This document shows, one piece after another, positions 1,044 to 20,816 of a DNA stretch of 32,000 nucleotides. The stretch is from Breznakia sp. PF5-3 (GTDB lineage Bacteria > Bacillota_I > Bacilli_A > Erysipelotrichales > Erysipelotrichaceae): NCBI RefSeq assembly GCF_029504745.1, contig NZ_JAQFIQ010000007.1:36047-68046 (forward strand). The letters are read 5' to 3'. A program made the translations under genes and the position numbers. Position 1 is the first letter of the stretch, and the number at the start of each line of letters is the position of its first letter. The notes below the pieces were generated by a model. That model had not been told where the DNA came from and made no database searches. It saw nothing but the letters and a program-made list of their open reading frames with translations.

Positions 1044-1094
1044 AGCAATGAAACTTTTTTACCATTGGTTTCGTTTCATAAGTAGAGGTAACTT

Positions 1095-1877
1095 ATGAAA
1101 CATATAAAAGCAATTATATTGGGTATCCTTATCGTTTCCTTAATGGGATGTAATTTCACAAACTCAACAAAACCATCGACGATAAGTAAGGAATCAACAG
1201 TTCACTATTACCCCAAAACATACGATATTGAACTAGCCAAAGAAAAGGGATTAATCAGTGAGGATTTGGATACGTTGAGTGAGTATTATCTAGAAGTACA
1301 AGGCTTATATCGAATTGTGTTAGAGGATAAGTTAAAAAGAGAACTAGACTTGGGAAATTTTGAAAAGAAACTGGAAGAACTAGATACGTATTTTCAACCG
1401 TATCTTGGCAAGGTTGATAAATATGAAGGATATCAACAATTTACAACGATGGATTTGCCATATTTGTTTTTACGTAATAATCTTCATATTGAAAATTTAA
1501 GCGATGAAGATTTGGAATTGCTTATTCAAAAATTAACCATAGAAGATCCAATTCATGATAAAGACTTGGTAGCTTTAGTAGATCGAACGTTTCTTTCGGT
1601 ATTACAAGTAAACCAATATGGTGATAAACCAACGGATAAGGATACAAGTATTTTCTATAATACACATTGGAGTTCTTGCTGTGCACTTGAACCAGAATTG
1701 GAAGTAAAAAGAGATACAATTGTTATTGAGGTTCGAGTGGATATGCAATACGATGAGAACGGTAATGTTTTAGATGGATACAGCGAAGCTGCTAAACAGC
1801 TTGAAAAAACGATAGCAGAATTTAAAAAGCAAGCGAATAAACAATACACTGTAGATGTGCTTTATTATTGGGACTAG
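1095..1877 (+). CDS. lipoprotein of unknown function
   Basis: Signal peptide with lipobox (ILIVSLMGC). GGT-rich RBS (agtagaggta) upstream. No family recognised. Confidence 0.7.
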   Translation: MKHIKAIILGILIVSLMGCNFTNSTKPSTISKESTVHYYPKTYDIELAKEKGLISEDLDTLSEYYLEVQGLYRIVLEDKLKRELDLGNFEKKLEELDTYFQPYLGKVDKYEGYQQFTTMDLPYLFLRNNLHIENLSDEDLELLIQKLTIEDPIHDKDLVALVDRTFLSVLQVNQYGDKPTDKDTSIFYNTHWSSCCALEPELEVKRDTIVIEVRVDMQYDENGNVLDGYSEAAKQLEKTIAEFKKQANKQYTVDVLYYWD

Positions 1878-1881
1878 TGTT

Positions 1882-1905
1882 ATTTCATTATATGAAATTG
1901 TTTTT
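1882..1905 (+). terminator. weak AT-rich intrinsic terminator after the lipoprotein gene
   Basis: atttcat (1882-1888) / atgaaat (1892-1898), 3-nt loop, then tgttttt. The stem has only one G:C pair. Confidence 0.4.
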
Positions 1906-1932
1906 AATAGAAATAAGCGTATAATTTAAAGT

Positions 1933-3276
1933 ATGACAAAAAAAGCAAAGATGTTTAATGAGCAACAACTAAAAAGACTGATTCTACCTTTGATTGTAGA
2001 ACAGTTTTTAGCGATTTCTGCCGGAATCATCGATACAATTATGGTTTCCTCTATTGGTGAGAGTGCAGTAAGTGGTTTATCTTTAGTCGATAGTATTAAT
2101 ATTTTATTGATTAATATTTTTGCGGCTTTAGCAAGTGGTGGAGCTGTTGTAGCAAGTCAGTTTTTAGGAAAAAACAATCGTGAAAAAGCAAAAGATACGT
2201 GCAAACAACTTGTATATGCAGTATCTTTTATTGCTATAATCATCATGATTTTATGCTTAGTATTTAGAACAAATATTTTATTAGCAATTTTTGGTAATGT
2301 GAATGCAGATATCATGGATTATGCAATTACATACTTTATTCTTTCAGCTCTTTCCTACCCATTCATTGCCCTTTATAATAGTGGGGCTGCTATCTTTAGA
2401 TCAATGGGAAATTCTAAGATGCCGATGCAGATATCACTTTTGATGAGTATTGTAAATATCATTGGAAATAGTATTTTTATTTTTGTTTTTCATATGGGAG
2501 TTGTAGGAGCTGGGTTAGCAACCTTATTTTCAAGAATTTTGGGAGCAGTGATTATTTTATACCGATTAAGAAATCCAGAATTACAAATCTATATTGAAAA
2601 ATATCATAAGTTTCATTTTGATTTTTCAATTATTAAGAAAATCTTACAAATTGGAATTCCAAGTGGTTTTGAGAATGGAATATTTCAAGCTGGGAAAATA
2701 GTTGTACAGAGTCTTATCTCAACCTTTGGAGCAGCGTCCATTGCTGCAAATGCAGTAATTGTAAACTTTAGTTCCTTTATGATTATTCCTGGTGCTGCCA
2801 TGGGTTTAGCCATGATTACAGTGGTTGGGCAATGTGTTGGGGCAAATGAATATGAACAAGCCAAATATTACATTCGAAAACTTATGAAGTATGCGTATCT
2901 TTCAGTCTTTATTACAACCCTTTGTATATTGTTGTTGAAAGGACAATTATATCATCTGTATTCTTTGAGTGACAAGACGATGTCGATTGCCAATGAATTG
3001 ATTCTTATTTGTGCTATTGGAAATGTCTTGTTTTGGCCAATGGCATTTACGTTCCCTAACAGTTTGCGAGCAAGCAATGATGCAACTTATTCCATGATTA
3101 TTTCCATCATATCAATGTTTTTATTCCGGGTTGGGTTGTCTTACGTATTGGCATATCAATTTGATATGCAAGTAGATGCAGTATATTATGCGATGTTAGT
3201 GGATTGGGTATTCCGTGGTACATGCTTTTTCTTACGCTATAAAAGTGGCCGATGGATGTATCGAAAATTAGTTTGA
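1933..3276 (+). CDS. MATE family efflux transporter
   Basis: 447 aa and polytopic (about 12 hydrophobic segments). The N-terminal LILPLIVEQFLAISAGIIDTIMVSSIGESAVSGLSLV is typical of MATE/NorM-DinF proteins. Confidence 0.85.
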   Translation: MTKKAKMFNEQQLKRLILPLIVEQFLAISAGIIDTIMVSSIGESAVSGLSLVDSINILLINIFAALASGGAVVASQFLGKNNREKAKDTCKQLVYAVSFIAIIIMILCLVFRTNILLAIFGNVNADIMDYAITYFILSALSYPFIALYNSGAAIFRSMGNSKMPMQISLLMSIVNIIGNSIFIFVFHMGVVGAGLATLFSRILGAVIILYRLRNPELQIYIEKYHKFHFDFSIIKKILQIGIPSGFENGIFQAGKIVVQSLISTFGAASIAANAVIVNFSSFMIIPGAAMGLAMITVVGQCVGANEYEQAKYYIRKLMKYAYLSVFITTLCILLLKGQLYHLYSLSDKTMSIANELILICAIGNVLFWPMAFTFPNSLRASNDATYSMIISIISMFLFRVGLSYVLAYQFDMQVDAVYYAMLVDWVFRGTCFFLRYKSGRWMYRKLV

Positions 3277-3302
3277 TGTGATACTATAGAAATGGTGAAT
3301 TT

Positions 3303-5630
3303 ATGAAACGTTATAAACCAGATACTACCTGTGGACTTACAAGCGAACAGGTAAAGGAAAGAATAAAGCAAGGGCTTGTAAATGTTACAAGCATGAATAA
3401 AACAAAATCTTATAAGCAGATTATTTTTGATAATTTGTTTACGCTTTTTAATTTTGTAAACATAGTGTTAGCACTCATCATATTGCCAACAGGATCTTAT
3501 CGAAATTTATTGTTTTTAGGAGTTGTTGTTTCCAATTTTGTAATTGGTACTTTTCAAGAGATTAGAGCTAAACGAACATTAGATCAAATTGCAGTTGTCG
3601 TTTGTTTAAAAGCAATGGTAATTCGGGATGGAAAGGTTGATGAAGTAGCAGTTGAAGATGTAGTATTGGATGATTTAATTCAGTTGAAAACAGGAAATCA
3701 AATTGTGAGTGATAGTATTGTAAGAGAAGGAATTCTTGAAGTGGATGAATCTTTATTGAGTGGTGAAAGTAAAGTAATTGTCAAACAAGTAGGAGATTTC
3801 TTGTATTCGGGGAGTTTTGTGGTCAGTGGCGAGGCGATTGTCCAAGTGGATCGTGTTGGTGATGATAATTATGCTGCGAAGATTACAAGTGATGCTAAGC
3901 AGTTTCAGCGATACCCTTCTGAATTACGTGATTCACTAAATAAAATTATTAAAATAATTGGGATTATAATTATTCCTTTGGGATCATTGATGTTTATTCA
4001 AAGTCATTTTTTTAATGGAAATAGTTATAGTGATACAGTATTGAATATGGCAGCTGCTTTAATTGGAATGATTCCTGAAGGATTGGTTATTTTGACGAGT
4101 ATTGCTTTGACAGTAGGAACGATTAATCTAGCAAGACATAAAACCTTAGTACAAGAATTATATTGTCTAGAAACTTTAGCTAGAGTAGATACATTATGTT
4201 TGGATAAAACAGGAACGATTACGGAAGGAAAGATGGAAGTAAAAGAAGTTGTAGTTCTTAGTGATGATGATATTGATGAAATCATGGGAAACTATGTTCG
4301 CTCGATGAGTGATGACAATGCAACCTTTCTGGCATTGAGAAATCATTTTGAAGAAATTAATACTTTTGAGTTTATTAGTAAAAAGCCATTCTCGAGTAAA
4401 CGAAAATACAGTGGTGCAGTTTTTACCTGTGCAACTTATGTTTTAGGGGCTTTTGAATTTGTTTGCAATCACCCAGAAAAATATCAATCGATTATCGATG
4501 ATTTTAGTGAACAAGGATATCGAGTCATCGTTTTAGCGAAGTCGAATAAAACGATAGAAGAAGCATTACCAGATGATTTAGAAGTGATAGCAGTCATTGC
4601 TTTGGCAGATAAAATTCGTGATAATGCGAAAGAAACATTGGCTTATTTTGATGAACAAGGAGTTACTATTAAAGTAATTTCTGGAGATAATCCACTGACG
4701 GTAAGTAAGGTAGCCAAACGCGCAGGGGTTAAGCAATCGCAAAAGTATTTGAATGCATCCCAATTGACGAATGTGGAAATTACCAAGCAAGTTGAAGAAT
4801 GTGCTGTCTTTGGACGGGTTAGCCCTGAGCAAAAAAAGATGATGGTCAAAGCATTAAAAGAACATAAACATATCGTAGGGATGACAGGAGATGGAGTAAA
4901 CGATGTCTTAGCTTTTAAAGAAGCTAATATAAGTATTGCGATGGCCAGTGGTAGTGATGTGGCAAAGGCGAGTGCTAACTTAGTACTATTGGATAATAAC
5001 TTTGATGCATTGCCATATGTTTTAAATGAAGGAAGAAGAGTAATTAATAATGTTGAAAAGGTAGCTACGCTTTTCTTAACTAAAACCATTTTTTCATTAA
5101 TCTTAGCGTTTTTGGTGTTAATCGTAAATGTTGATTATCCTTTTATTCCCATTCAACTAACTATTGTTTCCTCTTTAACGATTGGTTTTCCTGCGTTTGT
5201 ATTAGCATTAGAACCAAATCATGATCGAGTAAAAGGAGCCTTTTTAGAAAATATTATGAAAGTAAGTCTTCCAGCTGCGCTTAGTGTAATCATAGCTATT
5301 ATTTATGTTATGGTGTTATTCAAATGCAAGCATATTGATATGACGATTTCTAGACAGTTAGCCTTTCTAACGATATCCTTAAATGGACTTATTGTCTTGG
5401 CAAAAGTAGCTAGACCATTTAGTAAACTTAGATTGGCATTGTTTATTTCTATGAGTGTACTTTTATTTGTTTGTGTTACGATTTTTCATCGGTTCTTTGA
5501 AATTCCTGTATTAAATATTTTTGCTTTATCGTATTACCCAATTGTTGTAATTGCCATATTATTGGGAGTATCATACGGAGGAAGAAAAATTGTAGAATAT
5601 CTTATTAATTTAAAAAGAAATAAAAGATAG
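3303..5630 (+). CDS. cation-translocating P-type ATPase (HAD-IC family)
   Basis: Phosphorylation motif CLDKTGTITEG, hinge motif MTGDGVNDVLAFKEA, TGES-like SGES, and N- and C-terminal TM bundles. Ion specificity cannot be read from the sequence. Confidence 0.9.
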   Translation: MKRYKPDTTCGLTSEQVKERIKQGLVNVTSMNKTKSYKQIIFDNLFTLFNFVNIVLALIILPTGSYRNLLFLGVVVSNFVIGTFQEIRAKRTLDQIAVVVCLKAMVIRDGKVDEVAVEDVVLDDLIQLKTGNQIVSDSIVREGILEVDESLLSGESKVIVKQVGDFLYSGSFVVSGEAIVQVDRVGDDNYAAKITSDAKQFQRYPSELRDSLNKIIKIIGIIIIPLGSLMFIQSHFFNGNSYSDTVLNMAAALIGMIPEGLVILTSIALTVGTINLARHKTLVQELYCLETLARVDTLCLDKTGTITEGKMEVKEVVVLSDDDIDEIMGNYVRSMSDDNATFLALRNHFEEINTFEFISKKPFSSKRKYSGAVFTCATYVLGAFEFVCNHPEKYQSIIDDFSEQGYRVIVLAKSNKTIEEALPDDLEVIAVIALADKIRDNAKETLAYFDEQGVTIKVISGDNPLTVSKVAKRAGVKQSQKYLNASQLTNVEITKQVEECAVFGRVSPEQKKMMVKALKEHKHIVGMTGDGVNDVLAFKEANISIAMASGSDVAKASANLVLLDNNFDALPYVLNEGRRVINNVEKVATLFLTKTIFSLILAFLVLIVNVDYPFIPIQLTIVSSLTIGFPAFVLALEPNHDRVKGAFLENIMKVSLPAALSVIIAIIYVMVLFKCKHIDMTISRQLAFLTISLNGLIVLAKVARPFSKLRLALFISMSVLLFVCVTIFHRFFEIPVLNIFALSYYPIVVIAILLGVSYGGRKIVEYLINLKRNKR

Positions 5631-5664
5631 GATAGTGTATAATGATAGGGAAGTAGGTGATTTG

Positions 5665-6159
5665 ATGTATGAAAAATGTATAGCGTTATTAAAAGAACGT
5701 GGTGTAGAAATTGAAGATATTGTTGATTGTGTCTTTTATTTACAACGTGGACATATTGATGATACAGATGCTGCATCGATAAGTGAAACAGTAAAGAAAG
5801 TAATTGATAAGCGTGAAGTTCAACATGCAATCATTACAGGTATTTGTTTGGATAAGATGAGTGAACAGCGTATGCTGGTGGATAAAGATTTAGAAGATAT
5901 TTTAAATCGCGATGAATCACTATATGGAATTGATGAAGTACTAGCATATGGGATTTGTAATTTATATGGTTCTATAGCTCTTACTAATTTTGGATATATC
6001 GATAAGGCGAAGTATGGAATTATCAAAGAGTTAAATGATCATATGGATAATCATAATGCCTGTCATACATTTTTAGATGACATTGTAGGTGCGATTGCAG
6101 CTAGTGCTGCTAGTCGTATTGCTCATAATAAAAAGGGACCAGAAGATGAAACATTGTAA
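5665..6159 (+). CDS. phosphatidylglycerophosphatase A family protein (YutG-like)
   Basis: LLKERGVEIEDIV..YLQ, KREVQHAIITGI, LYGIDEVLAYGICNLYGSIALTNFGYIDK and FLDDIVGAIAASAASRIAH track B. subtilis YutG as I recall it. I moved the start to ATG 5665, which follows aggtga; the track's GTG 5635 lacks an RBS. Confidence 0.65.
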   Translation: MYEKCIALLKERGVEIEDIVDCVFYLQRGHIDDTDAASISETVKKVIDKREVQHAIITGICLDKMSEQRMLVDKDLEDILNRDESLYGIDEVLAYGICNLYGSIALTNFGYIDKAKYGIIKELNDHMDNHNACHTFLDDIVGAIAASAASRIAHNKKGPEDETL

Positions 6160-6574
6160 ATGGATGCTTGCACTGTTGTCACTTACATTTATCATCACAG
6201 GTTGTTTTAATTCAAGGAATAGTGAAAAAAGCATGGAGATTGATGCAGAAACGGTTATTGAAAAGACAGTTAACCGAGAGACTTTTTTATTATTGATTGT
6301 GAATGATGATTGTGATCCTTGCGAGGATTTAATGTCGTTGATTAAAGTTCCACTGGCAAAAAACCAAATAACTTTATATAGGCTAAATTACGCTGATGTG
6401 AGTAATGATATGGCAGATCAGTTACAATTGATGTTAACATCATATTCTTCATGGCCAGCACTTGTATATGTGAAGGATGGAGAAGTTTATAGTGGTAGTG
6501 TTTATGAATATTCACTAGATCCAGAAGGGTGGGAAACATGGTTGATCAATCAGGGATTAATTCCACAAAATTAA
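6146..6574 (+). CDS. lipoprotein with thioredoxin-like CxxC motif
   Basis: The likely start is MKHCKWMLALLSLTFIITGC (lipobox), which overlaps the upstream stop. A CDPC motif follows a beta-strand-like LLLIVNDD, as in thioredoxin-fold proteins. Confidence 0.55.
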   Translation: MKHCKWMLALLSLTFIITGCFNSRNSEKSMEIDAETVIEKTVNRETFLLLIVNDDCDPCEDLMSLIKVPLAKNQITLYRLNYADVSNDMADQLQLMLTSYSSWPALVYVKDGEVYSGSVYEYSLDPEGWETWLINQGLIPQN

Positions 6575-7350
6575 TACAAGATAATTTAATTACTAAGGAT
6601 GATTTAGTTGAGCATTTTAAAATGCTAGGCATTCAAAAAGGAATGCTTGTTTATATTCAATCATCACTTAACTATTTTTCGTATGTCTGTGGAGGGAATC
6701 GTACAATTATTGAAGCCCTTCAAGATGTTGTAGGTTATGATGGTGGTATTGTAACAAATGCTTTTACTAAGGATAATAAAGATCCATTAAATCGTGATCT
6801 TCAGGTTTTTAAACCATATCAGATTGAAGTTATCCGTGATGCTATGCCAGCATTTAATAAAAAGCTGTGTGCAAGTAAAAATAAACTGGCAGATCAAATG
6901 ATGCGTCATGATGGTGTTTTCCGCTCAAACCATCCAACCCATTCGTTTGTCGCATGGGGTAAATATGCAAAATTGATTTGTGATAAGCAACCCTTGCATT
7001 TTCCTTTAACGTCAGAGTCACCACTTGGGAAAGTGTGTGAATTAAATGGCTATATCTTACTTTTAGGAGTAAAATATGAGGCTGCTGATATTTTTAAGAT
7101 GACAAGAGTGAATGATAAACAAACTCCTATTCGCATTGTTTCTAGTCCAATTGAAAGACGGGGACGCAAGAGTTTTATCAATATGTTGGATTACGATTAT
7201 GAAAAGAAAGAGATCCAAGAAATTCAAGATATGATGAATGAGAGACAGATTGTGAAAGAAACCTATATTGGAAGAGCACGTTGTCGATTATTCAGTGCAA
7301 AAGAGGCAGCTACTTTGGCAAGTGGGTTCTATCATACTCATAAAAAATAA
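6538..7350 (+). CDS. AAC(3)-family aminoglycoside N-acetyltransferase-like protein (YokD-like)
   Basis: LGIQKGMLVYIQSSLNYFSYVCGG..TIIEAL, HPTHSFVAWG and SPLGKVCELNGYILLLGV match the AAC(3) fold consensus. ATG 6538 follows gggtggg. Confidence 0.8.
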   Translation: MVDQSGINSTKLIQDNLITKDDLVEHFKMLGIQKGMLVYIQSSLNYFSYVCGGNRTIIEALQDVVGYDGGIVTNAFTKDNKDPLNRDLQVFKPYQIEVIRDAMPAFNKKLCASKNKLADQMMRHDGVFRSNHPTHSFVAWGKYAKLICDKQPLHFPLTSESPLGKVCELNGYILLLGVKYEAADIFKMTRVNDKQTPIRIVSSPIERRGRKSFINMLDYDYEKKEIQEIQDMMNERQIVKETYIGRARCRLFSAKEAATLASGFYHTHKK

Positions 7351-7593: not shown

Positions 7594-8154
7594 ATGAAGA
7601 AACTTAGAATCAGGAGTGAATATGTCATTTTTATTTTGAGAATGTTTGTAATCTTCAGCGTTCTTGTTTTTGTTGTAACTACTTTTATCTTTCGAACGGT
7701 GCGAATCAATGGACAAAGTATGGAACCAACATTACAAAGCGGAGAATATGCATTTTCAAACAGATTGGCAGCAGATGAAGGGAATATCAATCGATTTGAT
7801 GTAATTGTAATTGATAACATTGAAGAAGATTATGTGGTGAAAAGAGTAATTGCACTCCCCAATGAAACCATATCTTACAAAGATGGAAAGTTATATATTA
7901 ATGGTGAATGGTATGAAGAACCATTCTTAGATCAAGAATATATTGCTTTGCATACAATGAATAATCAAATTACTTTTACGCAAAATTTTGGACCAATCAC
8001 ATTAGGTGAAAATGAATATTTTGTACTTGGTGATAACCGATTGAATTCAAAAGACTCTCGGGTCGTTGGTCCAATTCCTGAAAAAGACATTGTTGCAAAA
8101 GATGTAATTGTAGTATATCCGCTAAATAGTATACGTGTAGAAAGTTCCAACTAA
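7594..8154 (+). CDS. lepB: signal peptidase I
   Basis: N-terminal TM helix, catalytic Ser box NGQSMEPTL, Lys box VKRVIALPNETI, and GDNRLNSKDSR. Confidence 0.9.
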   Translation: MKKLRIRSEYVIFILRMFVIFSVLVFVVTTFIFRTVRINGQSMEPTLQSGEYAFSNRLAADEGNINRFDVIVIDNIEEDYVVKRVIALPNETISYKDGKLYINGEWYEEPFLDQEYIALHTMNNQITFTQNFGPITLGENEYFVLGDNRLNSKDSRVVGPIPEKDIVAKDVIVVYPLNSIRVESSN

Positions 8155-8180
8155 TTTTTTAATTATTGGAACCTTTTTTG
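8144..8180 (+). terminator. intrinsic terminator overlapping the lepB stop codon
   Basis: gttccaa (8144-8150) / ttggaac (8166-8172), 15-nt loop, then cTTTTTT. Confidence 0.6.
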
Positions 8181-8196
8181 TTTATTTCCGTCAATA
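8168..8196 (+). promoter_or_regulatory. ECF-type promoter candidate A1 (GGAACCTTTT-N-CGTCAATAT) in front of sigma-fusion gene A
   Basis: GGAACC 8168-8173, 15-nt spacer, CGTCAATA 8189-8196. The same bipartite motif recurs at 14749 and 20787. Confidence 0.55.
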
Positions 8197-8221
8197 TGTT
8201 AAGAAAGGATGAAAATGGAAT

Positions 8222-9547
8222 ATGAGCAGATTGAAAAAAGAAGAGATTCAAAAATTTCTAGATGGAGACGATAGTGTTTTTCCTGAGATTTTTGCTGCTT
8301 ATCGTAATAAGATTAATTATCTTGCGATAGAAATCTTACGAAACCAGGCAGATTGTGAGGAAGTAGTTCAAAATACGTTTATTAAAATCATTACCAAACG
8401 TAAGGATTTACGTGATGCTAGTGCTTTTAATACATGGATTTATCGAATTGCTTACAACGACTGTATGGATATATATCGGCAAAATAAAAAGGGTAAAACA
8501 GGTATGAATAATGACTACACTCTAGAAAATTATTCTGACAACAAAGGAGAGCCAAACGATGTGGTGAGTAAAAAGGCAATTTTAGAAGCAATTCAAAGCG
8601 AAATTGATGGCCTTCCAGAGGATATGAAACAAGTGTGTTTGTTAAGATTCGTTGGTGAATGTAGCCTTGAAGAAATCTCTGAAATCATGAGTATTCCAAA
8701 AGGCACAGTAAAGAGTAGGCTAAACAGGGCAAAAGTAAAACTTCGAGAAGGGCTGGTTGATAAGCATGTGACTCCAGCAATCTATATGTCATTGTCATTT
8801 ACACCTTTGGTATTTAAGTTGTATGCATCGTTAGTAAAACAACAAGAGATGCAACCACTTGTAGAAACAAAAGTTGCTAAAGTTATTGAAAACGCAACAG
8901 GAGTAACAGCAGGAGTAACGGTCGCAAGCGGAGGAATGATTATAGGATTTGGTAGTGCAGTAATAGGAACATCTATATTATTAGCATTATTTGGCACTTA
9001 TACGATTATAAATCCAATTATTGATCAAACGGCTGAAGTTGTAAAAATTGAGGAAATCAATTATTTGAAAGATCTTACAAATGAAAATTTGCAGATTGTT
9101 CTCATGTTCAGTGGAGAACCAGATGCAAAAGATATTAGTATAACATTTGTTGATGAAAATACAACGATCGAGGCTGAATCCGTTGACAATGAAAACTACA
9201 TGTTTGTTGCGAAGGCGAATGGAACATATCATGTAGAGTATGGTGGGGTAGCACAGGATATCAAAGTTGATAACATTGACAAGCAAAGCCCTAAATTGAA
9301 AAGTTTAGAAAAGGAAGAAGGATTACTTAAGATTATAGGTAGTGATGATTTTTCTGGCATTGATTTCGATAAATCATACGTTGAAGAGGGTTCCAATAAG
9401 TTTGATTTGATCAAAATTGATGATACATCTGCATTTTTCAAAGATGCAGTTAAGAAAAAGGCAAAGCTGTATTTGTATGATAAGGTAGGAAATTACCAGG
9501 TCTATGAGATCAATGCAACAGATACAGTGAGCAATACAGATGGGTAG
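8222..9547 (+). CDS. ECF-type sigma-70 family factor fused to a TM helix and a C-terminal extracytoplasmic domain (paralogue A)
   Basis: Region 2: EEVVQNTFIKI..FNTWIYRIAYNDCMDIYRQ. Region 4: LPEDMKQVCLLRFVGECSLEEISEIMSIPKGTVKSRLNRAKVKL. One hydrophobic helix (GGMIIGFGSAVIGTSILLALFG, about 8927-9007) is followed by about 180 aa homologous to the tail of the 21744 gene. Confidence 0.85.
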   Translation: MSRLKKEEIQKFLDGDDSVFPEIFAAYRNKINYLAIEILRNQADCEEVVQNTFIKIITKRKDLRDASAFNTWIYRIAYNDCMDIYRQNKKGKTGMNNDYTLENYSDNKGEPNDVVSKKAILEAIQSEIDGLPEDMKQVCLLRFVGECSLEEISEIMSIPKGTVKSRLNRAKVKLREGLVDKHVTPAIYMSLSFTPLVFKLYASLVKQQEMQPLVETKVAKVIENATGVTAGVTVASGGMIIGFGSAVIGTSILLALFGTYTIINPIIDQTAEVVKIEEINYLKDLTNENLQIVLMFSGEPDAKDISITFVDENTTIEAESVDNENYMFVAKANGTYHVEYGGVAQDIKVDNIDKQSPKLKSLEKEEGLLKIIGSDDFSGIDFDKSYVEEGSNKFDLIKIDDTSAFFKDAVKKKAKLYLYDKVGNYQVYEINATDTVSNTDG

Positions 9548-9647
9548 TTTCATAAAATTAGGTCTATGAAACAATACACTGTATATCCATAAAGCAATTT
9601 ATGGAGAAGTGAAAGATTATAAAATTAGAATGGAGGGAGTGAAAGTT

Positions 9648-12600
9648 TTGAGACGTAAATACGTAAAAACATTAAAGATGTTTAAAAGGTGTTTTCTTAC
9701 AGCACTGGCATTAGGTATTACACTTACGGCAATAAACCTGCCAAAAATGGATATCCATGCTCAAACAGAGGATGTTCGCTATGATTTGCAAACGGAATTA
9801 AGCGAAGATAAAAAAGAACTTCGTATTGATTTATTAGCTTATGCAAATAGGAATGATGTTGAAATAACGGCGATTGGTAACCCTGATGGGACCATCACGG
9901 ATGGAGCAAAAACGTCATATGTTTCTGTAACAAATGAAACATTGACATTTGTGGTGAACTACAAAATATTAGAAGAGAAAGATGGAAAAATAAAAGAAAT
10001 CTCAAAGACAAAAGAAGTTGAATATGAGGTGGATCAATTTGGTAAAGAAGAAGAGGCACAGCCTCAAGCATTAAGTGATCCATTGGCACCATTTTCATCT
10101 TTAAAAGCAAATATGAGTTTTAGAAATGCTTTTAATGTATCTCATACAAAAGATGGGTTATACTATCTTTCTGATAATTCTATGGAATTAGGGTATCACT
10201 ATAATGAATATGTGAAATTTTTGCTTAGCAAAGCACGTTGTACTACATCAAAGTATTGGGAAGGCTGGTATGCGAAGTTTGCTGCAGTATCAAAATATAA
10301 AGTTGATTTCTCAAAAGATTTTAAAGTTACAAACGTAATATCTTCAAATCCAACATTATATGGAGATGGGTTCACGTTAGGATTTCAAACAGATCCAAAC
10401 TTTACATATACAACAGGTAAAGGGGGTTCTATAGGAGTTTACCGTAATGGTAGTGACTATGGGGCTCGCAATGGTGTAGTATTTGAAGTTGATTATCATG
10501 ATAACTCTCCAGATGGAATGTGGCATGATATAGGATTAGGTGGAAATCACTTAGCAATTCATACAACGGATGCTTATGGAAATGAATCAACTCCAGTTGC
10601 TTCTTGGTTCGGTGTAAAACACACAGGAAGTCTAACTGCATTCAATGTGACTTGGACAATTACAGATAAAGCTACAAACACTGGGACATTGACATTTACA
10701 TATGGAACATACAATTTGAAATATACAAATTTCAGACCACATGAAGTATTTGGTGGGTCAGTAAACAATCCTACAGCAGCATATTTAACATATACTGGAG
10801 TAATCTTGAAAGATTATGGTTCAAATAACAAACCATTCCAAATCACAATGACAGATTATTCTTATCTTGAAGATGAAGTAACTGCAAGTGATGGATTTAT
10901 TACCCAAACTCAAGCAAAAGCTTTGGCAAACCAAAATGGATTAATTCTTTATAACAATGCATCTGCAGTTTCTACTGCTGGAGATAGTGTTACACCTACG
11001 GTTTCAACACCTGCATGGAGCAACATTAAATCTGGTTTAGTAGGTACTTATGATGTGACATATGCTTATGGAACAGCATCAAAAACAGTAAAATTAAGCG
11101 TAATTAAAGATGGATCAATCATTTCACCAAACAAGGATTTCTCACTTTATGCAGAAAATGCTTCCTTGTTACAAAGTGAAGCAATTGCATTAAGTTCAAT
11201 GAATGATTTAGTATCTGTTCATGATGCAAGTGTAACGATGGCAAATGGAACGCTTCTTGCACCAAATGCAACAACAAGTGCTTGGTCATCAATCAAAGCT
11301 GGGGTTGTAGGAAATTACGTGATTACTTTCTATTATGGAACAGGATCAAACTACACAGCAAAAAACGTTACATTATCAGTTGTTGCTGATAAGAAACATG
11401 AAATATATGCAAGTGATGGATTTATTACCCAATCACAAGCTAAGGCACTTACGAGTATGCAAGGATTTATTCCTTACAACCAAGCAAAAGTAATTACTAA
11501 TGAAGGTGTTACTACGGTGCCAAGTACCGTTGCTACGAACTATTGGAATGAAATTAACACAGGAACAATCGGTTCTTATAACGTTACATATTCTTATGGA
11601 TCAGGAACAGCAAGAGTATCAAAAACAGTAAAATTAAATGTTGTGAAAGATGGAACTGTGTTCCCTCCAGATAACAGTTTTGCATTATATGCAGAAGATG
11701 GTTTTATTAAACAAAGTCAAGCAAAAGCACTTACATCAACAAGCCAATTAATACCTTATAACAATGCGAGCGTAACATTGGCTGATGGAAGTAGTGATGT
11801 ACCATTCGTTAGTTTAAATACTTGGTCAAATATTGTGAGTGGAACGATTGGTAGCTACGATATCGTATATATGTATGGTGCTGGTGCTAACCTTAAATAT
11901 AAAGTTGTGAAATTAAACGTTATTGAAGATGGTGGTATTATTGCACCAGATAAGAGTTTTGCATTATATGCAGATAATGGAACGATTTCACAAACCCAAG
12001 CATCTGCACTTACAGGTACATCACAATTAATCCCTTATAACAATGCGAAAGTAATTTTGGCGAACGGAACACGTGCAGAACCAAATGTATCTGCTCCAAC
12101 GTATAGCGAAATTGTGAGTGGGGTTGTAAAGACTCATAAAGTTACATATAGTTATGGAGTGCTTACAAACAAAGTATCTAAAGAAGTAGACTTACAATTA
12201 ATTGCTGATAAGCGTCATGAAGTTCGCGCAGAAGATGGCTTCATTTATGCAACACAAGCGAAAGCATTAACAAATCAAAGTGAATTAATTCCATTTAATA
12301 GTGCAAGTGTTATAACAAACACTGGTCAAAGTGCACAACCGGTTGTAACAACAGGAAGTTGGGCTAACATTGTAGCTGGGGTAACTGGTTCATATGATAT
12401 TACTTATAGCTATGGAAGTGGAACAACACAAGGATCAAAAACAGTAGTCTTGAATGTTGTACCAGATGGAACAATATTCCCACCAGATAAAGCATTTGCA
12501 GTATATGCAGAAGATGGTTTAATCAATGTGGAACAAGCGAAGAAGTTAACAGCACAAAAAGATCTTATTCCATATAACTCAGCATATGTAATGTTGAAAA

Positions 12601-14645
12601 ATGGAACGATTGTAGATCCAGATGTATCTACTTGGGATTGGGTAAAAATCTCAGCTGGAATTGAAGGAACATATGATGTTAACTATGGTTATACAATTAT
12701 GCCGAATACGGTTCAAAAAGGTGTAAAACTTACTGTAACAAAAGGTACAACACCACCAAGTAATTCATTCTCATTATATGCTAGAGATGGATTTGTATAT
12801 GAAGATCAAGCAAAAGCATTTACTGCCCAAAAAGATATGATTCCATTCAATGATGCTTTTGTAACATTGAAGGATGGATCAAGTGTAGATCCACAAGTTG
12901 CAACACCTCATTGGTCAGCAATTAAGGATGGAACAATTGGTTCATATCCAGTAACATATGGTTATACAAAGGGTAGTGAATCATTATCAAGTGTTGTGAA
13001 ATTGAATGTTGTAGAAAATGGTTCTACCATTTCACCAGGACAAGATTTTGCAATTTATGCTAAGAATGGAATTATTCAACAATCATCTGCACAAGCATTG
13101 ATTAGCTTGAATGATTTAATTCCTTACAATGGTGCAAAAGTTACCCTTAAAGATGGTAGTGAAGCTACGCCAACGGTAACAACAGCAGATTGGACAGCAA
13201 TTCGTGCAGGAGTATTGGGTACATATTCAATTACCTATAGTTATGGTAGTGGTACGAATACAGCATCTAAAGTGGTAACACTAAGAGTAGTACCAGATGG
13301 AAATCCTTCACCAGAAGGAGACTTCATCTTATATGCTTCAAATGGATTCATTTCAAAAGAGCAGGCGATGGCTATTACAAGTCAAAAAGATTTGATTCCA
13401 TATAACAAAGCATCCGTTATCAAGGACGATGGTAGCGATGCAGAACCATCTGTATCAACAACTAGTTATGCAGATATTAAAGCTGGTAAATTAGGTGTTT
13501 ACAATGTAACATATCGTTATGGATTTGGTACAAACTTAGTTTCAAAAACAGTGAAACTTACAGTTCATGATGGTACTCCTTCACCAGGAGGAAATTATGT
13601 ATTAAATGCTAAAGATGGTTTAATTTCTAAAAGCGAAGCAAAAGCATTAAGTTCAACAGCAGACTTAATTGCAATTAACGACGCATCTGTTTGGATGAAT
13701 GATGGATCAACTGATGTTCCAGTGGTTACAATGCTACCACTTAATTGGTTATCTTTAAATGAAGGTATTATCAATAGCTATCCAGTTCTTTATAGTTATG
13801 GAAGTGGTAGTGATTATACACAAAAAACAGTTCGTGTAACAGTGTATGATGATGGTGGTATCATATCTCCAAATAAAGACTTTGTATTAAATGCTAAGAA
13901 TGCAGTATTAACACAAAGTGAAGCAAAAACTTTAACAAGTGCAAGTGACTTAACCGTTTATAATGATGCTCTTGTTAGTTATGCAAATGGTAACAAAGCA
14001 ATTCCAAATACAACAGCTACAGAATTTGCTTCTATTAAAAGTGGTGTAGTAGGAACTTACAATGTAACATATGATTATGGTACAGGATCTAATTACACAG
14101 AAAAAGCAGTGAAATTAGTAGTTGTAAAGGATGGCGCATTGATTGCACCAGATCGTAGTTTTGCGATTTATGCAGAAGATGTAACATTGAATCAAGATGA
14201 GGCACGCGCATTGACAAACAAAAATCAAATTACAAGTTTGGCACACGCGATGGTCTATATTGCAGATGGAACAACAGCAACACCTACGTTGTCACTTCCA
14301 GATTGGGATGATATCAAAGCAGGTATTTCAAATGATTATGCTGCTGATTTCACATATCAAGATGTAACAGGTAGTATTAATATAAAAGTTACGCAAGAAT
14401 ATGTAACAAGATATCTATTTGACTATGATAATAACAAACGTATTGATGTTATTGATTATGCTTATTTTGCAAGTTACTATAGTGGTGCAACACCAATGTC
14501 TCCATTGGCTTGGGCATTAACAGATTACCCACCAGGAGATGGACGTATCGATGTTATCGATTTAGCACACTTTAAACGTCATTACAGCGATTCGACACTT
14601 CCATTGGTTGAAGTAGAAGTACCAGCAGATTGGCGCTTAGAATAA
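9648..14645 (+). CDS. giant secreted protein: signal peptide, small N-terminal module, L-type-lectin-like domain, 13 x ~90-aa repeats, C-terminal dockerin-like module
   Basis: One uninterrupted frame. The track starts at GTG 9609, but TTG 9648 sits 8 nt after GGAGGGAG and yields a normal signal peptide (RRKYVKTLKMFKRCFLTALALGITL). Domain evidence is given in the separate entries. Confidence 0.9.
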   Translation: MRRKYVKTLKMFKRCFLTALALGITLTAINLPKMDIHAQTEDVRYDLQTELSEDKKELRIDLLAYANRNDVEITAIGNPDGTITDGAKTSYVSVTNETLTFVVNYKILEEKDGKIKEISKTKEVEYEVDQFGKEEEAQPQALSDPLAPFSSLKANMSFRNAFNVSHTKDGLYYLSDNSMELGYHYNEYVKFLLSKARCTTSKYWEGWYAKFAAVSKYKVDFSKDFKVTNVISSNPTLYGDGFTLGFQTDPNFTYTTGKGGSIGVYRNGSDYGARNGVVFEVDYHDNSPDGMWHDIGLGGNHLAIHTTDAYGNESTPVASWFGVKHTGSLTAFNVTWTITDKATNTGTLTFTYGTYNLKYTNFRPHEVFGGSVNNPTAAYLTYTGVILKDYGSNNKPFQITMTDYSYLEDEVTASDGFITQTQAKALANQNGLILYNNASAVSTAGDSVTPTVSTPAWSNIKSGLVGTYDVTYAYGTASKTVKLSVIKDGSIISPNKDFSLYAENASLLQSEAIALSSMNDLVSVHDASVTMANGTLLAPNATTSAWSSIKAGVVGNYVITFYYGTGSNYTAKNVTLSVVADKKHEIYASDGFITQSQAKALTSMQGFIPYNQAKVITNEGVTTVPSTVATNYWNEINTGTIGSYNVTYSYGSGTARVSKTVKLNVVKDGTVFPPDNSFALYAEDGFIKQSQAKALTSTSQLIPYNNASVTLADGSSDVPFVSLNTWSNIVSGTIGSYDIVYMYGAGANLKYKVVKLNVIEDGGIIAPDKSFALYADNGTISQTQASALTGTSQLIPYNNAKVILANGTRAEPNVSAPTYSEIVSGVVKTHKVTYSYGVLTNKVSKEVDLQLIADKRHEVRAEDGFIYATQAKALTNQSELIPFNSASVITNTGQSAQPVVTTGSWANIVAGVTGSYDITYSYGSGTTQGSKTVVLNVVPDGTIFPPDKAFAVYAEDGLINVEQAKKLTAQKDLIPYNSAYVMLKNGTIVDPDVSTWDWVKISAGIEGTYDVNYGYTIMPNTVQKGVKLTVTKGTTPPSNSFSLYARDGFVYEDQAKAFTAQKDMIPFNDAFVTLKDGSSVDPQVATPHWSAIKDGTIGSYPVTYGYTKGSESLSSVVKLNVVENGSTISPGQDFAIYAKNGIIQQSSAQALISLNDLIPYNGAKVTLKDGSEATPTVTTADWTAIRAGVLGTYSITYSYGSGTNTASKVVTLRVVPDGNPSPEGDFILYASNGFISKEQAMAITSQKDLIPYNKASVIKDDGSDAEPSVSTTSYADIKAGKLGVYNVTYRYGFGTNLVSKTVKLTVHDGTPSPGGNYVLNAKDGLISKSEAKALSSTADLIAINDASVWMNDGSTDVPVVTMLPLNWLSLNEGIINSYPVLYSYGSGSDYTQKTVRVTVYDDGGIISPNKDFVLNAKNAVLTQSEAKTLTSASDLTVYNDALVSYANGNKAIPNTTATEFASIKSGVVGTYNVTYDYGTGSNYTEKAVKLVVVKDGALIAPDRSFAIYAEDVTLNQDEARALTNKNQITSLAHAMVYIADGTTATPTLSLPDWDDIKAGISNDYAADFTYQDVTGSINIKVTQEYVTRYLFDYDNNKRIDVIDYAYFASYYSGATPMSPLAWALTDYPPGDGRIDVIDLAHFKRHYSDSTLPLVEVEVPADWRLE
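10101..10884 (+). other. L-type (legume-like, ConA-fold) lectin-like domain
   Basis: YGDGFTLGFQTDPN...GKGGSIGVY...ARNGVVFEVDYHDNSPDGMWHDIGLGGNHLAIHT follows the remembered consensus aDGlaF...gggG.lG...n..vaVEFDt..N...D....HigI. Confidence 0.55.
10887..14380 (+). repeat. 13 tandem in-frame copies of a ~90-aa (~270-bp) module
   Basis: The recurrent pattern is LYA-DGFI-Q-QAKALT----LIPYN-A-V-L-DG----P-V----W--I--G--GSYDVTYSYG-G----K-VKLNVV-DG. The copies are diverged at DNA level. Confidence 0.85.
14418..14588 (+). other. dockerin-like module (two Ca-loop/helix segments)
   Basis: FDYDNNKRIDVIDYAYFASYY ... GDGRIDVIDLAHFKRHY. Asp/Asn sit at loop positions 1, 3, 5, 9 and 12, as in dockerin EF-hand-like repeats. 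Confidence 0.7.
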
Positions 14646-14700
14646 GCGAATATCGTAAATTTACATCATCAATTGATGTAGAAAGTATAGCTTTAGGTAA

Positions 14701-14728
14701 AGAGGATGCTAACGCATTCTCTTTTTTT
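14701..14728 (+). terminator. intrinsic terminator after the lectin/dockerin gene
   Basis: agaggatgc (14701-14709) / gcattctct (14714-14722): 9 bp including one G:U pair, loop taac, then a T-run of 6-7. Confidence 0.75.
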
Positions 14729-14748: not shown

Positions 14749-14777
14749 GGAACCTTTTGCGCTGGATTCCGTCGATA
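14749..14777 (+). promoter_or_regulatory. ECF-type promoter candidate A2 (GGAACCTTTT-N-CGTCGATAT) in front of the cohesin-like gene cluster
   Basis: GGAACC 14749-14754, 15-nt spacer, CGTCGATA 14770-14777. It lies downstream of the 14701 terminator and about 55 nt before ATG 14835. Confidence 0.55.
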
Positions 14778-14834
14778 TTACAGAAAGGAGCATTTTACAT
14801 TGTAATTTTTATTTTATGTAAAGAGGAGGACGAA

Positions 14835-16427: not shown

Positions 16428-19400
16428 ATGAAAAAATTCTTTAAATTATTTATCGCTGCATTTATAGCAGTAACATGTATTGTTCCTTTACAAAGTATTT
16501 CAGCGGCTTATGGAGATCCAGTAGAGCCAATTTACCAAATTTCACGTAATGATGGTGGAGGGAAATATGGAACACATAAGAACCCTGATTATAAAGAGGG
16601 AACTACACAATATTACCGTGATGGAGATATTATCGAGGTAGATTTCAGATTACCAGCTGATTCAGGAGTTCAAATTTATAACCAAGTTATTAAATATGAC
16701 TCAGATCAGTTAGATTTATTATCATCAGATACAGATATTACAGGTACTTTATCATCTACTTTCACAAGTAAGAATTGGTCAAGTACAACAGCAAGAGACA
16801 ATAATGACAATGAAAAAATCTTAGTTTATGGGGGAAGTAATAACTTTGGAAACCCTGATACAAAAGATTATACAGGTGGAACGATTGCTAAGGTTTACTT
16901 CAAAGTAAAAAATGGAGTTGAATCAACAGCAGGAACACCAATTACATTTGAATTTATGAATTTTCAAACAGCAGAGTTTAAAAATAACAAAGTTTCTTAT
17001 ACACATATAGGATATGATCCTAACAACGATGCAGGAACGGTATACTATACAGCTCCTTCACAAACCATTCAAGTAAAGAAACCAAGTGTAACATTTAGTG
17101 CTAATGATGGATTTATTACACAAAGCCAAGCAAAAGCATTAAATACAAAGAATGATTTAAAAGCTTATAATGATGTAAGTGCAAAATTAACTGATGGCAC
17201 TAATATTGATGTGACAACAGATGCACAAAACTTCAATGATATTAAAGCTGGAAAAATTGGTTCTTATGATGTGACATATGGATATACACATGATGGAAAT
17301 TCAGATAGTAAAAAAGTAAAATTAAATGTAGTATCTGATGATGCAGTTATCTCACCAGAGAAAAATTTTGCTTTATCAGCAGAACATGCATTTATTACTG
17401 CATCGGATGCGAAAAAGTTAACGAATAAAACACAATTGATTTCACTTAACAATGCAAAAGTAACATTGAAAAATGGTACTAACGCTACACCTAATGTAGA
17501 TGCACCTGCATTTGCTTCTATTCAAGCAGGAAGTGTTGGAACTTACGAAGTTACTTATAGTTATGGAAGTGGGTCTGATACAGCAAGTAAAAAAGTGTTT
17601 GTAACGGTTGTGAAAGATGGTTCGGTGATTTCACCTAACAAAGATTTCTCACTTTATGCAAAACATGGATTTATTAAGAATACAGAAGCTAAAAATTTAA
17701 CAAGTAGAACTCAATTGATTCCATATAACAATGCAGAAGTTACACTTGTAAATGGAGATAAAAGAGATCCTAGACCAACAGTAACAGCTGCTGAATGGTT
17801 ATCAATTACTTCTGGTATTAAAGGAAGTTACAATGTTCTTTATGAATATGGTGATGGAGCAAATGAAACAAGCTTGGTTGTTAAAATAACAGTCATTGAT
17901 GAAAACGATCCAATCTCACCAAACAAAGAAGCAAGTCTATCTGCACAAGATGTTGAGCTTAGTGAAACAGAAGCAAAAGCGCTTACATCAAAGAATGATT
18001 TGATTGCTTTAAATAAAGCGTCTGTTACATTATCTGACGGTTCTGTGGCAACACCAACGATAGCAAGTGTTGATTATGCTAGTATAGTATCGGGTAAAAT
18101 TGGAATTTATCCAATTACATATACATATGGTAGTGGTCAAGGAAAAGTTGATAAGACAGTAAATGTAATCGTTAAAGAAGATAAAAAACATGTAATTACA
18201 TATGAAGATAAGATTATTACTGTTGATCAAGCAAAAGCATTATCTAGTAAAGATGATCTTAGAGTGGTAAACAATGTTCAAGTAACAGCAATTGATGGAT
18301 CACATCCAAATGCAGTTGTTGATGCACCAACATGGAGTTCTATTAAAGATGGTAAATTAGGAACATACACAGTTACTTATAGTTATGGATACGGAGATAA
18401 ATTAGTATCTGTAAATGCAAAAGTTACAATCGTTCCAAATGGTTCAGAAATTGATGATAACGCAAGTTTATATGCGCAAAATGGATTCCTTGAACAATCA
18501 TCTGCAAAAGCACTAGTAACTAGAAATGATTTAATTCCTTATAATGCAGCGTCAGTTACATTATTAAGTGGTGGAACAGCAACGCCAACGGTTGGAATGA
18601 GCGCAGGAGATTGGTACTTATTGTCGGCAGGAGAATTAGGTTCATATGATGTTGTTTATTCATATGCAAGTTTAAGCAAACGTGTTCTTGCAACAGTAAT
18701 TAAAGATGGATCTATCGTTTCTGAAGATAAGACAGCAAGTTTATATGCAGAAAATGCATTTATTGAATCAAGCAATGCTAAGAAATTAGCAAATAAAGAA
18801 GCACTTAGAGCATATAACAAAGCGTCTGTAACATTAATTGATGGTAGAACAGCGAACGCAACAGTAGATGTTGCAGCTGCTGATTGGTTAGCAATCCAAC
18901 AAGGAACAGTTGGAGCATATGACATACTATATACATATGGAAGTGGAGATGGACAAGTTAGCAAGCGTGTAAAAATTGTTGTTATCGATGATGATCCAAT
19001 CATTTCTCAAGATGGGAAAGTTGCATTGAATGCAGTTGATGGTGAAATTGCGGATACGGATGCAAAGAAAGTTACAAGCAAAGAAGACTTGATTCCATAT
19101 AACAGTGCAAAAGTTACATTGGAAGATGGAACTATCGCTAAATTGGATGTAACAATATCTACAAGTAGCTTAAATGCTATTAAAGCAGGTACGTTAGGTA
19201 CTTATACTGTTACATACTCTTATGGAAGTGTTGGAAGCCCAAGTTATGTAAGTAAAACAGTAAAATTAGAAGTTGTAATTAAAACAAGAGCAATTCATAT
19301 GTTTGACTATGATGATAACAAACGTATTGATGTTATTGACTTAGCACATTTCAATAGAATTTATTCTAATTCTATGAATGTTTCTGCATATGATTTAATG

Positions 19401-20786: not shown

Positions 20787-20816
20787 GGAACCTTTTTCGG
20801 ATTATAAGCGTCTCAA
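20787..20816 (+). promoter_or_regulatory. ECF-type promoter candidate A3 (GGAACCTTTT-N-CGTC)
   Basis: GGAACC 20787-20792, 16-nt spacer, CGTCTCAATA from 20809. The spacer is one nt longer than in A1 and A2. Confidence 0.4.

Follow-up and report, generated by a model that had tools for sequence, protein, structure and literature searches.

Paralogous ECF sigma factors fused to a predicted membrane span and a tandem Ig-like ectodomain in Breznakia sp. PF5-3: a probable one-chain transmembrane sigma system

C-terminal extensions are the second most common mode of regulation of extracytoplasmic function (ECF) sigma factors (PMC7826278), and sigma/anti-sigma hybrids have been described, namely IutY (ECF243) and the ECF48, ECF52 and ECF53 groups of Actinobacteria (PMC8999054, PMC5411451, PMC5826349). 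IutY is activated by sequential Prc and RseP proteolysis (PMC8999054, PMC5411451), while for ECF48/52/53 proteolytic activation has been proposed, not proven (PMC5826349, PMC8999054). Here we analyzed a 32,000-nucleotide stretch of the genome of Breznakia sp. PF5-3 (contig NZ_JAQFIQ010000007.1, positions 36,047 to 68,046; hereafter the window), which contains two paralogous sigma-factor genes, referred to throughout as P1 (open reading frame (ORF) 8222-9547) and P2 (ORF 21744-23045). We consider it probable that each encodes a one-chain transmembrane ECF sigma system, i.e., a working ECF sigma fused to its cognate single-pass membrane regulator. The original prediction, made from the letters of the window, had read each protein as a sigma joined, within a single polypeptide, to a membrane span and an outside domain, and this was borne out by an architecture conserved in about 100 homologues. 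It had also presented the fusion design as a departure from known systems; the design is not unprecedented, since IutY and ECF48/52/53 are described (PMC8999054, PMC5411451), and with fused sigma/anti-sigma proteins already documented the principle is known and the novelty had been overstated. What is new is the family itself, its lineage, its tandem immunoglobulin (Ig)-like ectodomain and its short unclassified linker, together with the coexistence of split, fused and sigma-less forms and of many insulated paralogues tied to cohesin/dockerin-like surface cassettes. The literature searched contained no description of this family combining sigma, transmembrane (TM) span and Ig-like domains, and no Firmicute case where intramembrane proteolysis would act on the sigma itself and not on a separate anti-sigma.

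The two proteins are laid out as follows, the assignment of P1 being based on its ORF, Pfam, NCBIfam, hydropathy, alignment and AlphaFold:

8222 to 9547, + strand: P1, sigma-TM-ectodomain fusion, 441 aa
8291 to 8491, + strand: P1 Sigma2, aa 24-90
8585 to 8749, + strand: P1 Sigma4, aa 122-176
8762 to 8956, + strand: P1 linker, aa 181-245
8957 to 9013, + strand: P1 predicted TM span, about aa 246-264
9044 to 9526, + strand: P1 predicted tandem Ig-like ectodomain, aa 275-435
21744 to 23045, + strand: P2, second sigma-TM-ectodomain fusion, 433 aa
21816 to 22013, + strand: P2 Sigma2, aa 25-90
22107 to 22256, + strand: P2 Sigma4, aa 122-171
22500 to 22556, + strand: P2 hydrophobic span, aa 253-271
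22575 to 23030, + strand: P2 ectodomain, aa 278-429

Both reading frames run without interruption at these coordinates, and the protein search returned P1 at 100% identity (as P0001). The P2 start ATG 21744 is preceded by a GGGGG ribosome-binding site; the alternative start TTG 21726, taken from a mechanical ORF list, is probably not used. Aligned over their full length, P1 and P2 share 28% identity (E 6e-57). Pfam matched only regions 2 and 4, as expected of an ECF (group 4) sigma70 factor, with Sigma70_r2 at E 7e-11 in P1 and 1e-10 in P2 and Sigma70_r4_2 at E 8e-13 and 1e-12, respectively; its scan gave no family match across the C-terminal 260 aa of either protein. The NCBIfam model TIGR02937 (sigma70-ECF) scored 95 bits for P1 and 90 bits for P2, against a cut-off of 42.9, while none of the NCBIfam equivalog cut-offs was reached, the nearest being SigW with 114 bits against 209. 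The top Foldseek matches of the sigma domain were ECF sigma structures. Canonical ECF residues (D44, E47, Q50, T52, F53, F69, W72 and the sigma4 helix-turn-helix) are invariant family-wide, as are the motifs of regions 2.1-2.4 and 4.2. By these sequence measures P1 and P2 are complete ECF sigma factors, and binding to core RNA polymerase is predicted from the invariant motifs. The complete regions 2 and 4 read earlier from the window were confirmed in both proteins by Pfam and TIGR02937, and the motifs FTPL, DLTN, NGxY, NIDKxxP, IDxxKSY and YDxxGN, picked out at the same time, were all found, most of them invariant or nearly so in the family.

A word-index search returned about 15 full-length relatives, and just 6 proteins when an alignment of the C-terminal part was used. 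An exhaustive search, in which the query was a profile of the region from the linker to the end, gave 678 matches at E<=1e-3, of which 263 reached E<=1e-10. Among the retrieved sequences, about 100 distinct proteins of 405-470 aa combine a match to the sigma hidden Markov model, a match to the ectodomain model and a hydrophobic peak between the two, so homologous fusions in related genomes, suggested as something to look for, do exist. The named members all come from Breznakia, Coprobacillaceae, Erysipelotrichaceae or Thomasclavelia, a taxonomic range that reflects a few named proteins, the majority of the family being metagenomic sequences. When related loci were sought with P2 as the sole query none was obtained, and the alignment query A4 gave 4 loci. 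The Breznakia PF5-3 lineage holds at least five paralogues: P1, P2, P0007, one in locus L017 and P0122.

The hydrophobic segment between sigma and tail, measured as the 19-residue Kyte-Doolittle peak, reaches 2.17 in P1 (aa 239-257); the median of 100 distinct homologues is 1.89, and 96 of them show a peak of at least 1.4, in agreement with the original prediction. A lysine stands at the cytoplasmic edge of the span in 52/87 homologues, and lysine plus arginine amount to 1.83 before the span compared with 0.89 after it across the family, a bias that fits a single-pass topology with the N-terminus inside and the C-terminus outside; we infer this topology, with one span, for P1 and P2. The distance from the end of sigma4 to the span has a median of 61 aa in the 100 homologues, and glycine, alanine, serine and threonine together make up 42% of the span. 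Sigma4 is followed in the family by the stretch KG(Y)xPxxY(F)S(F)xxxP and then hydrophobic residues; the helical part of the linker covers aa 185-226, about 45 aa in three helices. Known anti-sigma or sensor families were rejected for linker and tail, as Pfam and NCBIfam returned noise alone, e.g., CopC at E 0.04.

AlphaFold was run on P1 with an 88-sequence alignment and gave a mean predicted local distance difference test (pLDDT) of 84. The sigma domains had block means of 88-97, excluding the loop between sigma2 and sigma4, and the linker helices 193-207 and 212-226 about 74-91, with the second helix the highest. The ectodomain, at pLDDT 92-98, was modelled as two tandem beta-sandwich (Ig-like) domains of ~160 aa in total, all-beta, the juxtamembrane one having seven beta strands and no helices. 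The homology of the tails of P1 and P2 had been noticed earlier and stands, while the tail of about 160-180 aa described then is corrected to two tandem Ig-like domains, as predicted by AlphaFold. Foldseek matched the ectodomain to generic tandem Ig/Fn3 pairs alone (butyrophilin, Met, OSCAR, CbhA Fn3), which gives no functional lead, and no ligand-binding family was recognisable in it with Pfam or Foldseek.

Two further observations concern the surroundings of the span. An Asn-Pro dipeptide marks its outer edge in P1 (aa 264-265, 9011-9016), in the rest of the P1 clade and in P0208 and P0256, two of the split partners (such partners are described below). It recalls the autocleavage dipeptide of RsgI, but its structural setting differs. 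The idea that it is an autocleavage site of the RsgI kind throughout the family was dropped, because Asn-Pro follows the span in 17/100 homologues and is absent in P2. Between the linker helices and the span lies a Gly/Ala/Ser/Thr-rich, charge-poor tract (P1 aa 227-245, 8900-8956; P2 aa 225-252), in which these four residues have a family median of 0.41 compared with 0.22 over the full protein. Unrelated sigma-TM fusions, e.g., P0017 and P0083, have a very long version of it. As pure speculation, the tract could be a signal at which a processive protease halts, so that the tail would be trimmed and the sigma spared.

The relation between sigma and tail is seen in relatives in which the two are encoded separately. 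Three separate clusters of split partners were found, i.e., P0208 (244 aa; 13 members on >100 contigs), P0203 (255 aa) and P0214 (251 aa), each with a span, a homologous ectodomain and a cytoplasmic tail of 40-60 aa whose sequence can be aligned to that of the second linker helix. A separate ECF sigma gene of 188-191 aa directly precedes each partner gene; the two genes overlap by 11 nt in locus L005 (partner P0208), where an AGGAGG ribosome-binding site is present, overlap by 8 nt in L019 and are separated by 8 nt in L018. Concatenated to 435 aa, the L005 pair aligns colinearly with P2 from end to end (29% identity, E 4e-35). Adjacent genes for a sigma and its partner are the classical layout of a sigma/anti-sigma operon. 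The split pairs and the colinear alignment indicate that the tail is the sigma's cognate membrane regulator, so that, judged by sequence, the C-terminal part corresponds, in fused form, to the product of a separate regulator gene. No separate anti-sigma gene follows either fusion, as had been noted from the window; the next genes encode signal-peptide proteins. The family also includes sigma-less paralogues, P0108 (L017, 667-1311, Breznakia sp. PF5-3) and P0120 (L008, 6001-6615, Thomasclavelia), in which a cytoplasmic tail of ~20 aa is followed by a span and by the tandem ectodomain seen in the fusions. Both follow the gene of a DUF1307 lipoprotein inside their cassettes, a place held by P2 in the window, and they may be decoys or co-receptors.

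In IutY of Pseudomonas putida, a hybrid that works in cell-surface signalling, an ECF sigma at the N-terminus is likewise joined through a single span to an extracytoplasmic domain at the C-terminus; IutY also has relatives with separate sigma and anti-sigma genes, and its proteolysis model is borrowed here. It differs in having a FecR-like anti-sigma/periplasmic domain, a TonB-dependent outer-membrane receptor and a Gram-negative cell, whereas P1 and P2 have a tandem Ig-like ectodomain, an Erysipelotrichales host, of Gram-positive lineage and without an outer membrane, and surface-protein clusters instead of iron uptake as predicted targets. Pfam and NCBIfam gave no FecR or DUF4880 match in P1 or P2, and the window has no gene for a TonB-dependent receptor. 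ECF48/52/53 proteins, e.g., SCO4117 of Streptomyces coelicolor, likewise join a sigma to a C-terminal span and an outside domain (PMC5826349, PMC8999054); however, their extensions open on a zinc-finger anti-sigma motif of the ZAS type and also include proline-rich and carbohydrate-binding segments. In the Breznakia linker neither the HxxxCxxC zinc-finger motif nor a family match was seen; its alignment columns contain no conserved Cys or His, and no zf-HC2 match was obtained in Pfam or NCBIfam.

In the class II short anti-sigma systems CnrH/CnrY and EcfG/NepR, short cytoplasmic helices clamp sigma2/sigma4 closed, and the P1 model superposes best on these complexes. For sigma2/sigma4 the template-modelling (TM) score was 0.75 with 4.2 A against CnrH-CnrY (4cxf), 0.76 with 3.7 A against RpoE-NepR (5uxx) and 0.71 against SigW-RsiW, while the model does not superpose on the sigma of the holoenzyme (root-mean-square deviation about 26 A). 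This weakly suggests a closed state in which the sigma of P1 is clamped by a short in-chain linker element. The linker has no sequence similarity to CnrY or NepR, and the likeness is one of a predicted model.

Sequences resembling ECF promoters were found at five places in the window:

8168 to 8192, + strand: predicted promoter 1a, GGAACCTTTTTT-N-CGTC, 30 nt before P1; kept in L001 and L011
14749 to 14773, + strand: predicted promoter 1b, GGAACCTTTT-N-CGTC, before the next operon; at the same place in L001 and L011
20787 to 20812, + strand: predicted promoter 1c, GGAACCTTTTT-N-CGTC, in the intergenic stretch ahead of the DUF1307 lipoprotein gene and P2; kept in L001
21667 to 21694, + strand: predicted promoter 2a, TGAACC-N16-CAACTAAT, upstream of P2
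26873 to 26900, + strand: predicted promoter 2b, TGAACC-N16-CAACTAAT, upstream of a surface-protein gene of >1680 aa

Variant 1, GGAACCTTTT-N-CGTC, has 3 sites in the window compared with 0.21 expected, all of them intergenic and on the + strand, and variant 2, TGAACC-N16-CAACTAAT, has 2 sites compared with 0.04 expected. Each variant has one copy upstream of its own sigma gene (GGAACC-N-CGTC before P1), and all three variant 1 sites are kept in the orthologous Breznakia locus L001. The elements change in concert within genomes. In the P1 clade the -10 element is CGTC at both sites in the window and in L001, while in B. pachnodae (L011) the promoters of the sigma gene and of the ~515-aa gene both keep TGGAACCTTTT and both have CGCC instead of CGTC. 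In the P2 clade the -10 element reads CAACTAAT in the window, CATCTAAT in L014 and CGTCTTAC in L016, being identical at the sigma and big-gene promoters of each genome, and a fourth cassette (L017) has AGAACG-N16-CGTCATA at two sites and AAAACG-N16-CGTCATA at a third. Such concerted change is expected where a sigma and its promoters co-evolve, and it argues for working, autoregulated sigmas and for paralogues that are insulated from each other. The predicted promoters argue that P1 and P2 are autoregulated and drive the neighbouring surface-protein genes; the earlier proposal that each fusion heads a surface-protein cluster is supported by the covariation of these predicted sigma-specific promoters.

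Some features of the promoter regions stand apart. Within about 10 nt, promoter 1c is followed by the conserved sequence AATAATGAAGGGTAAA...TTTA(T/C)CCTT (20812-20845; L001 20930-20960), and in L001 this sequence forms a hairpin with a T-run, so that a promoter would fire straight into a terminator-like hairpin; the hairpin could be the terminator of the upstream operon, an attenuator or part of a short RNA. The sigma promoter (8202-8210) and the promoter of the ~515-aa gene (14786-14794) share a AGAAAGGA box, set 9-11 nt downstream of the -10 element and conserved at the equivalent places in L001 and L011. In front of the sigma gene it is a possible ribosome-binding site, and in front of the ~515-aa gene the genuine ribosome-binding site follows about 40 nt further on; the box may have been left over from a duplication of the promoter or belong to the sequence that the sigma recognises. 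In the cassette of P0007 (L003), a GAACTTTT-N-CGT promoter (422-446) also precedes a pilin-like cluster (559-6614) encoding DUF7601 and FctA proteins and an S26 peptidase, so the P0007 sigma may control pilus genes as well.

For the mechanism, the original prediction had offered proteolytic release or transcription at the membrane, and we propose the former. The sigma (aa 1-180) and the ~60-aa helical linker would be cytoplasmic, followed by one span and two Ig-like domains outside. At rest, membrane tethering would keep the sigma off, and the linker helices would probably hold it closed as a short in-chain anti-sigma element. An outside cue acting on the ectodomain would lead to cleavage outside the membrane, the candidate enzyme being, by analogy with RsiV and RsiP, the S26 signal peptidase of the adjacent gene; a cut by a site-2 protease within the small-residue-rich span would then free the sigma domain. 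The freed sigma would transcribe its own gene and the neighbouring surface-protein operons from its paralogue-specific promoter variant. We infer the inhibition, including the linker's part in it, as well as the signal, the proteolysis and the enzymes for it. In SigV/RsiV and SigP/RsiP of Bacillus and Clostridioides, which are Firmicute ECF systems, both RsiV and RsiP are cut at site 1 by type I signal peptidase and at site 2 by RasP (PMC4183432, PMC8844934). A signal peptidase gene adjoins four of the fusion genes examined. In those systems, unlike here, sigma and anti-sigma are separate, the signal peptidases are encoded away from the sigma genes, and RsiV carries DUF4163/DUF3298 domains that bind lysozyme; no sequence relationship to the P1/P2 system was found.

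Several points weigh against this mechanism. Pfam and NCBIfam recognised no known anti-sigma family in the linker or in the split partners, and at ~45-60 aa the linker falls short of the four-helix domain of about 80-90 aa of class I anti-sigmas. AlphaFold frequently draws free ECF sigmas closed, which makes the closed model weak evidence. The span has a pLDDT below 50 and is modelled as a helix in neither P1 nor P2, and the hydropathy peak of P2, at 1.52 (aa 253-271), is borderline. No cleavage motif between span and ectodomain is conserved in 100 homologues, and removal of the tail without degradation of the sigma is an unsolved step in a fusion. The adjacency of the signal peptidase may merely reflect the heavy secretion load of the clusters, and the S26 gene of L003 belongs to the pilin cluster. 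The promoters, finally, are assigned from sequence and comparison alone.

It is also conceivable, though unlikely in our estimation, that the tail is no sensor at all and serves as a component of a cohesin/dockerin-like assembly or as a constitutive turnover handle, the fusion coupling the amount of sigma to that of a surface protein, with constitutive processing in place of signal-dependent control. The sigma-less P0108 and P0120, found in the same kind of cassette, indicate that the ectodomain has a role without a sigma; Ig-like repeats of this type recur many times in the giant surface proteins, and the lack of a recognisable ligand-binding family mentioned above would also agree. However, the strict pairing of sigma and partner, split or fused, is a hallmark of sigma/anti-sigma signalling pairs, the invariant surface motifs NGxY, NIDKxxP and YDxxGN at 20-30% identity fit a conserved interaction, and the predicted autoregulated promoters would imply a switch-like circuit.

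Alternatively, the sigma could be active while tethered, the full-length protein recruiting RNA polymerase to the membrane for transcription of the adjacent genes of secreted proteins, and the ectodomain modulating it without cleavage, by conformation or clustering, much as ToxR and CadC act on DNA from the membrane. The long linker and the absence of a conserved cleavage site would suit this, the target genes all encode signal-peptide or membrane proteins, which would be inserted during translation near the membrane, and the removal of a covalently attached anti-sigma tail would be avoided. Nevertheless, IutY, the sole characterised fused sigma, needs proteolytic release (PMC8999054), the free sigma of the split forms shows that tethering is not needed for function in the family and their partner resembles a binding regulator, and the modelled closed sigma2/sigma4 would be incompatible with core binding, which makes activity in the tethered state improbable. 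A bolder proposal, which we regard as a long shot, is that this large and natural set of single-chain transmembrane sigmas, insulated from one another, acts from the membrane throughout. The tethered sigma would draw RNA polymerase there, so that giant surface proteins would be transcribed, translated and secreted at one site, and through the Ig-like ectodomain it would sense how the surface assembly stands. If true, such a membrane-resident sigma would be the sigma-factor counterpart of membrane-bound regulators of the ToxR type; we know of no sigma described as acting in this way. That the fusion is a frameshift artefact or a decaying pseudogene, a suspicion to which the split versions in relatives might lend some color, has a negligible chance of being right and was ruled out, since the frame and length are kept in the two window paralogues, in at least three further Breznakia paralogues (P0007, the one in L017, P0122) and in about 100 full-length homologues from independent assemblies, and the junction residues G182, P185, Y188, S190 and P195 are conserved as protein; the fused ORF foreseen in the original prediction is genuine.

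Under the proposed fusion of sigma and cognate membrane regulator, the neighbouring genes are the candidate targets. They are arranged in the window as follows:

7594 to 8154, + strand: type I signal peptidase (S26); Peptidase_S26 E 1e-43, sigpep_I_bact 148 bits against a cut-off of 47
9609 to 14645, + strand: 1678-aa repeat surface protein with a signal peptide and a dockerin-like C-terminus, 61 nt after P1
14835 to 16367, 16428 to 19523 and 19529 to 20629, + strand: three surface/membrane protein genes with a common ~200-aa N-terminal cohesin-like domain
21085 to 21546, + strand: DUF1307 lipoprotein, a recurrent cassette member that adjoins the sigma-less paralogues in L008 and L017
23057 to 26847, + strand: two genes predicted to be co-transcribed with P2, their order kept in L014 and L016

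The order of the genes is kept in orthologous and paralogous cassettes. A P1-type cassette consists of the S26 signal peptidase, the sigma fusion, a giant repeat protein, three cohesin-like proteins, a 49-aa membrane peptide and the DUF1307 lipoprotein; a P2-type cassette, also seen in L014 and L016, consists of the sigma fusion, a protein with Flg_new repeats, a protein with leucine-rich repeats (LRR) and Ig-like domains, and a giant surface protein. The S26 gene carries SMEPT, KRVI and GDNRxNSxDSR boxes and lies directly upstream of the sigma gene in the window, in L001, in L011 (55% identity) and in the paralogous cassette L017. No terminator separates P1 from the gene of the 1678-aa protein, after which a terminator-like hairpin is found (14699-14724), and the two genes are probably co-transcribed. 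The partners of P2 are a 389-aa membrane protein with Flg_new repeats and a signal peptide, 11 nt after P2, and an 874-aa surface protein with LRR and Ig-like domains. The surface-protein gene of >1680 aa begins at ATG 26956 and runs off the window, which accounts for the ORF-free stretch 27000-32000. Homology of the ectodomain to the regulated neighbours was rejected, since the sole matches, weak and partial at E 3e-4, fell in repeats encoded by the gene that starts at 26956. No Rfam match was found in the window.

The ~200-aa N-terminal domains of the three surface proteins match one another with pairwise E of 1e-27 to 2e-60, and match Cohesin at E 0.014, below the cut-off; the middle protein (16428-19523) additionally has Big_3 and a dockerin-like end. 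Two proteins of the window end in a dockerin-like double EF-hand repeat, for which Dockerin_1 scored 20.5 bits in the 1678-aa protein against a cut-off of 22.9, and a paralogous 1086-aa protein in L003 has a precomputed Dockerin_1 match. Taken together, the sub-threshold cohesin matches and the dockerin-like ends suggest a cohesin-dockerin surface assembly in this Erysipelotrichales gut bacterium. For the first of the three genes the ORF start ATG 14706 is almost certainly wrong, because the hairpin at 14699-14724 and the promoter at 14749-14773 would lie inside it; the true start would be ATG 14835, preceded by AGGAGG and leading into a signal peptide. The P1 cassette closes with a small ORF (20633-20782) for a single-span peptide of ~49 aa (MNCGYDMMALILFFITVFVCSFYIMKLKRQ...); L001, L003 and L008 likewise have a called gene of 49-59 aa in this place.

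SigI/RsgI of Clostridium thermocellum and Bacillus, to which the original prediction had likened the locus, also form many paralogous autoregulated pairs per genome, each driving a subset of genes for cohesin/dockerin surface complexes from paralogue-specific promoters, with RsgI as a single-pass anti-sigma carrying an outside sensing module (PMC10328401, PMC10575876). In contrast, SigI forms a sigma70 subfamily apart, and RsgI combines an N-terminal domain of its own kind with a SEAL domain that cleaves itself, whereas P1 and P2 are ECF-type and fused, and have an all-beta Ig-like juxtamembrane domain. Membership in SigI/RsgI was rejected, as the best sigma matches were ECF families and neither an RsgI_N match (Pfam) nor SEAL features were found. 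The echo holds for the logic of many paralogues serving surface assembly and for the weakly scoring dockerin/cohesin-like domains, and fails for the ECF type of the sigma and the absence of an RsgI or SEAL domain.

Other ECF sigmas of 336-608 aa (P0017, P0083, P0020, P0034, P0053 and P0054) carry a similar motif after sigma4, i.e., hydrophobic residues, Tyr/His, hydrophobic residues, Pro and further hydrophobic residues, together with a span; their outside domains are quite different, e.g., BspA-type LRR_5. Sigma-TM fusions thus appear to be a wider class with exchangeable ectodomains.

The occurrence of the same system in split and fused form constitutes a natural experiment on the effect of covalent tethering on sigma control. 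With several paralogues per Breznakia genome, each with its own predicted promoter variant and surface cassette, the family offers a compact example of sigma insulation, and the paralogues might also furnish orthogonal sensors, each a single protein coupling an outside cue to transcription. Very little is known so far about the cohesin/dockerin-like and LRR surface proteins of gut Erysipelotrichales, and the sigma fusions would provide a regulatory handle on these proteins in the Erysipelotrichales of insect and animal guts.

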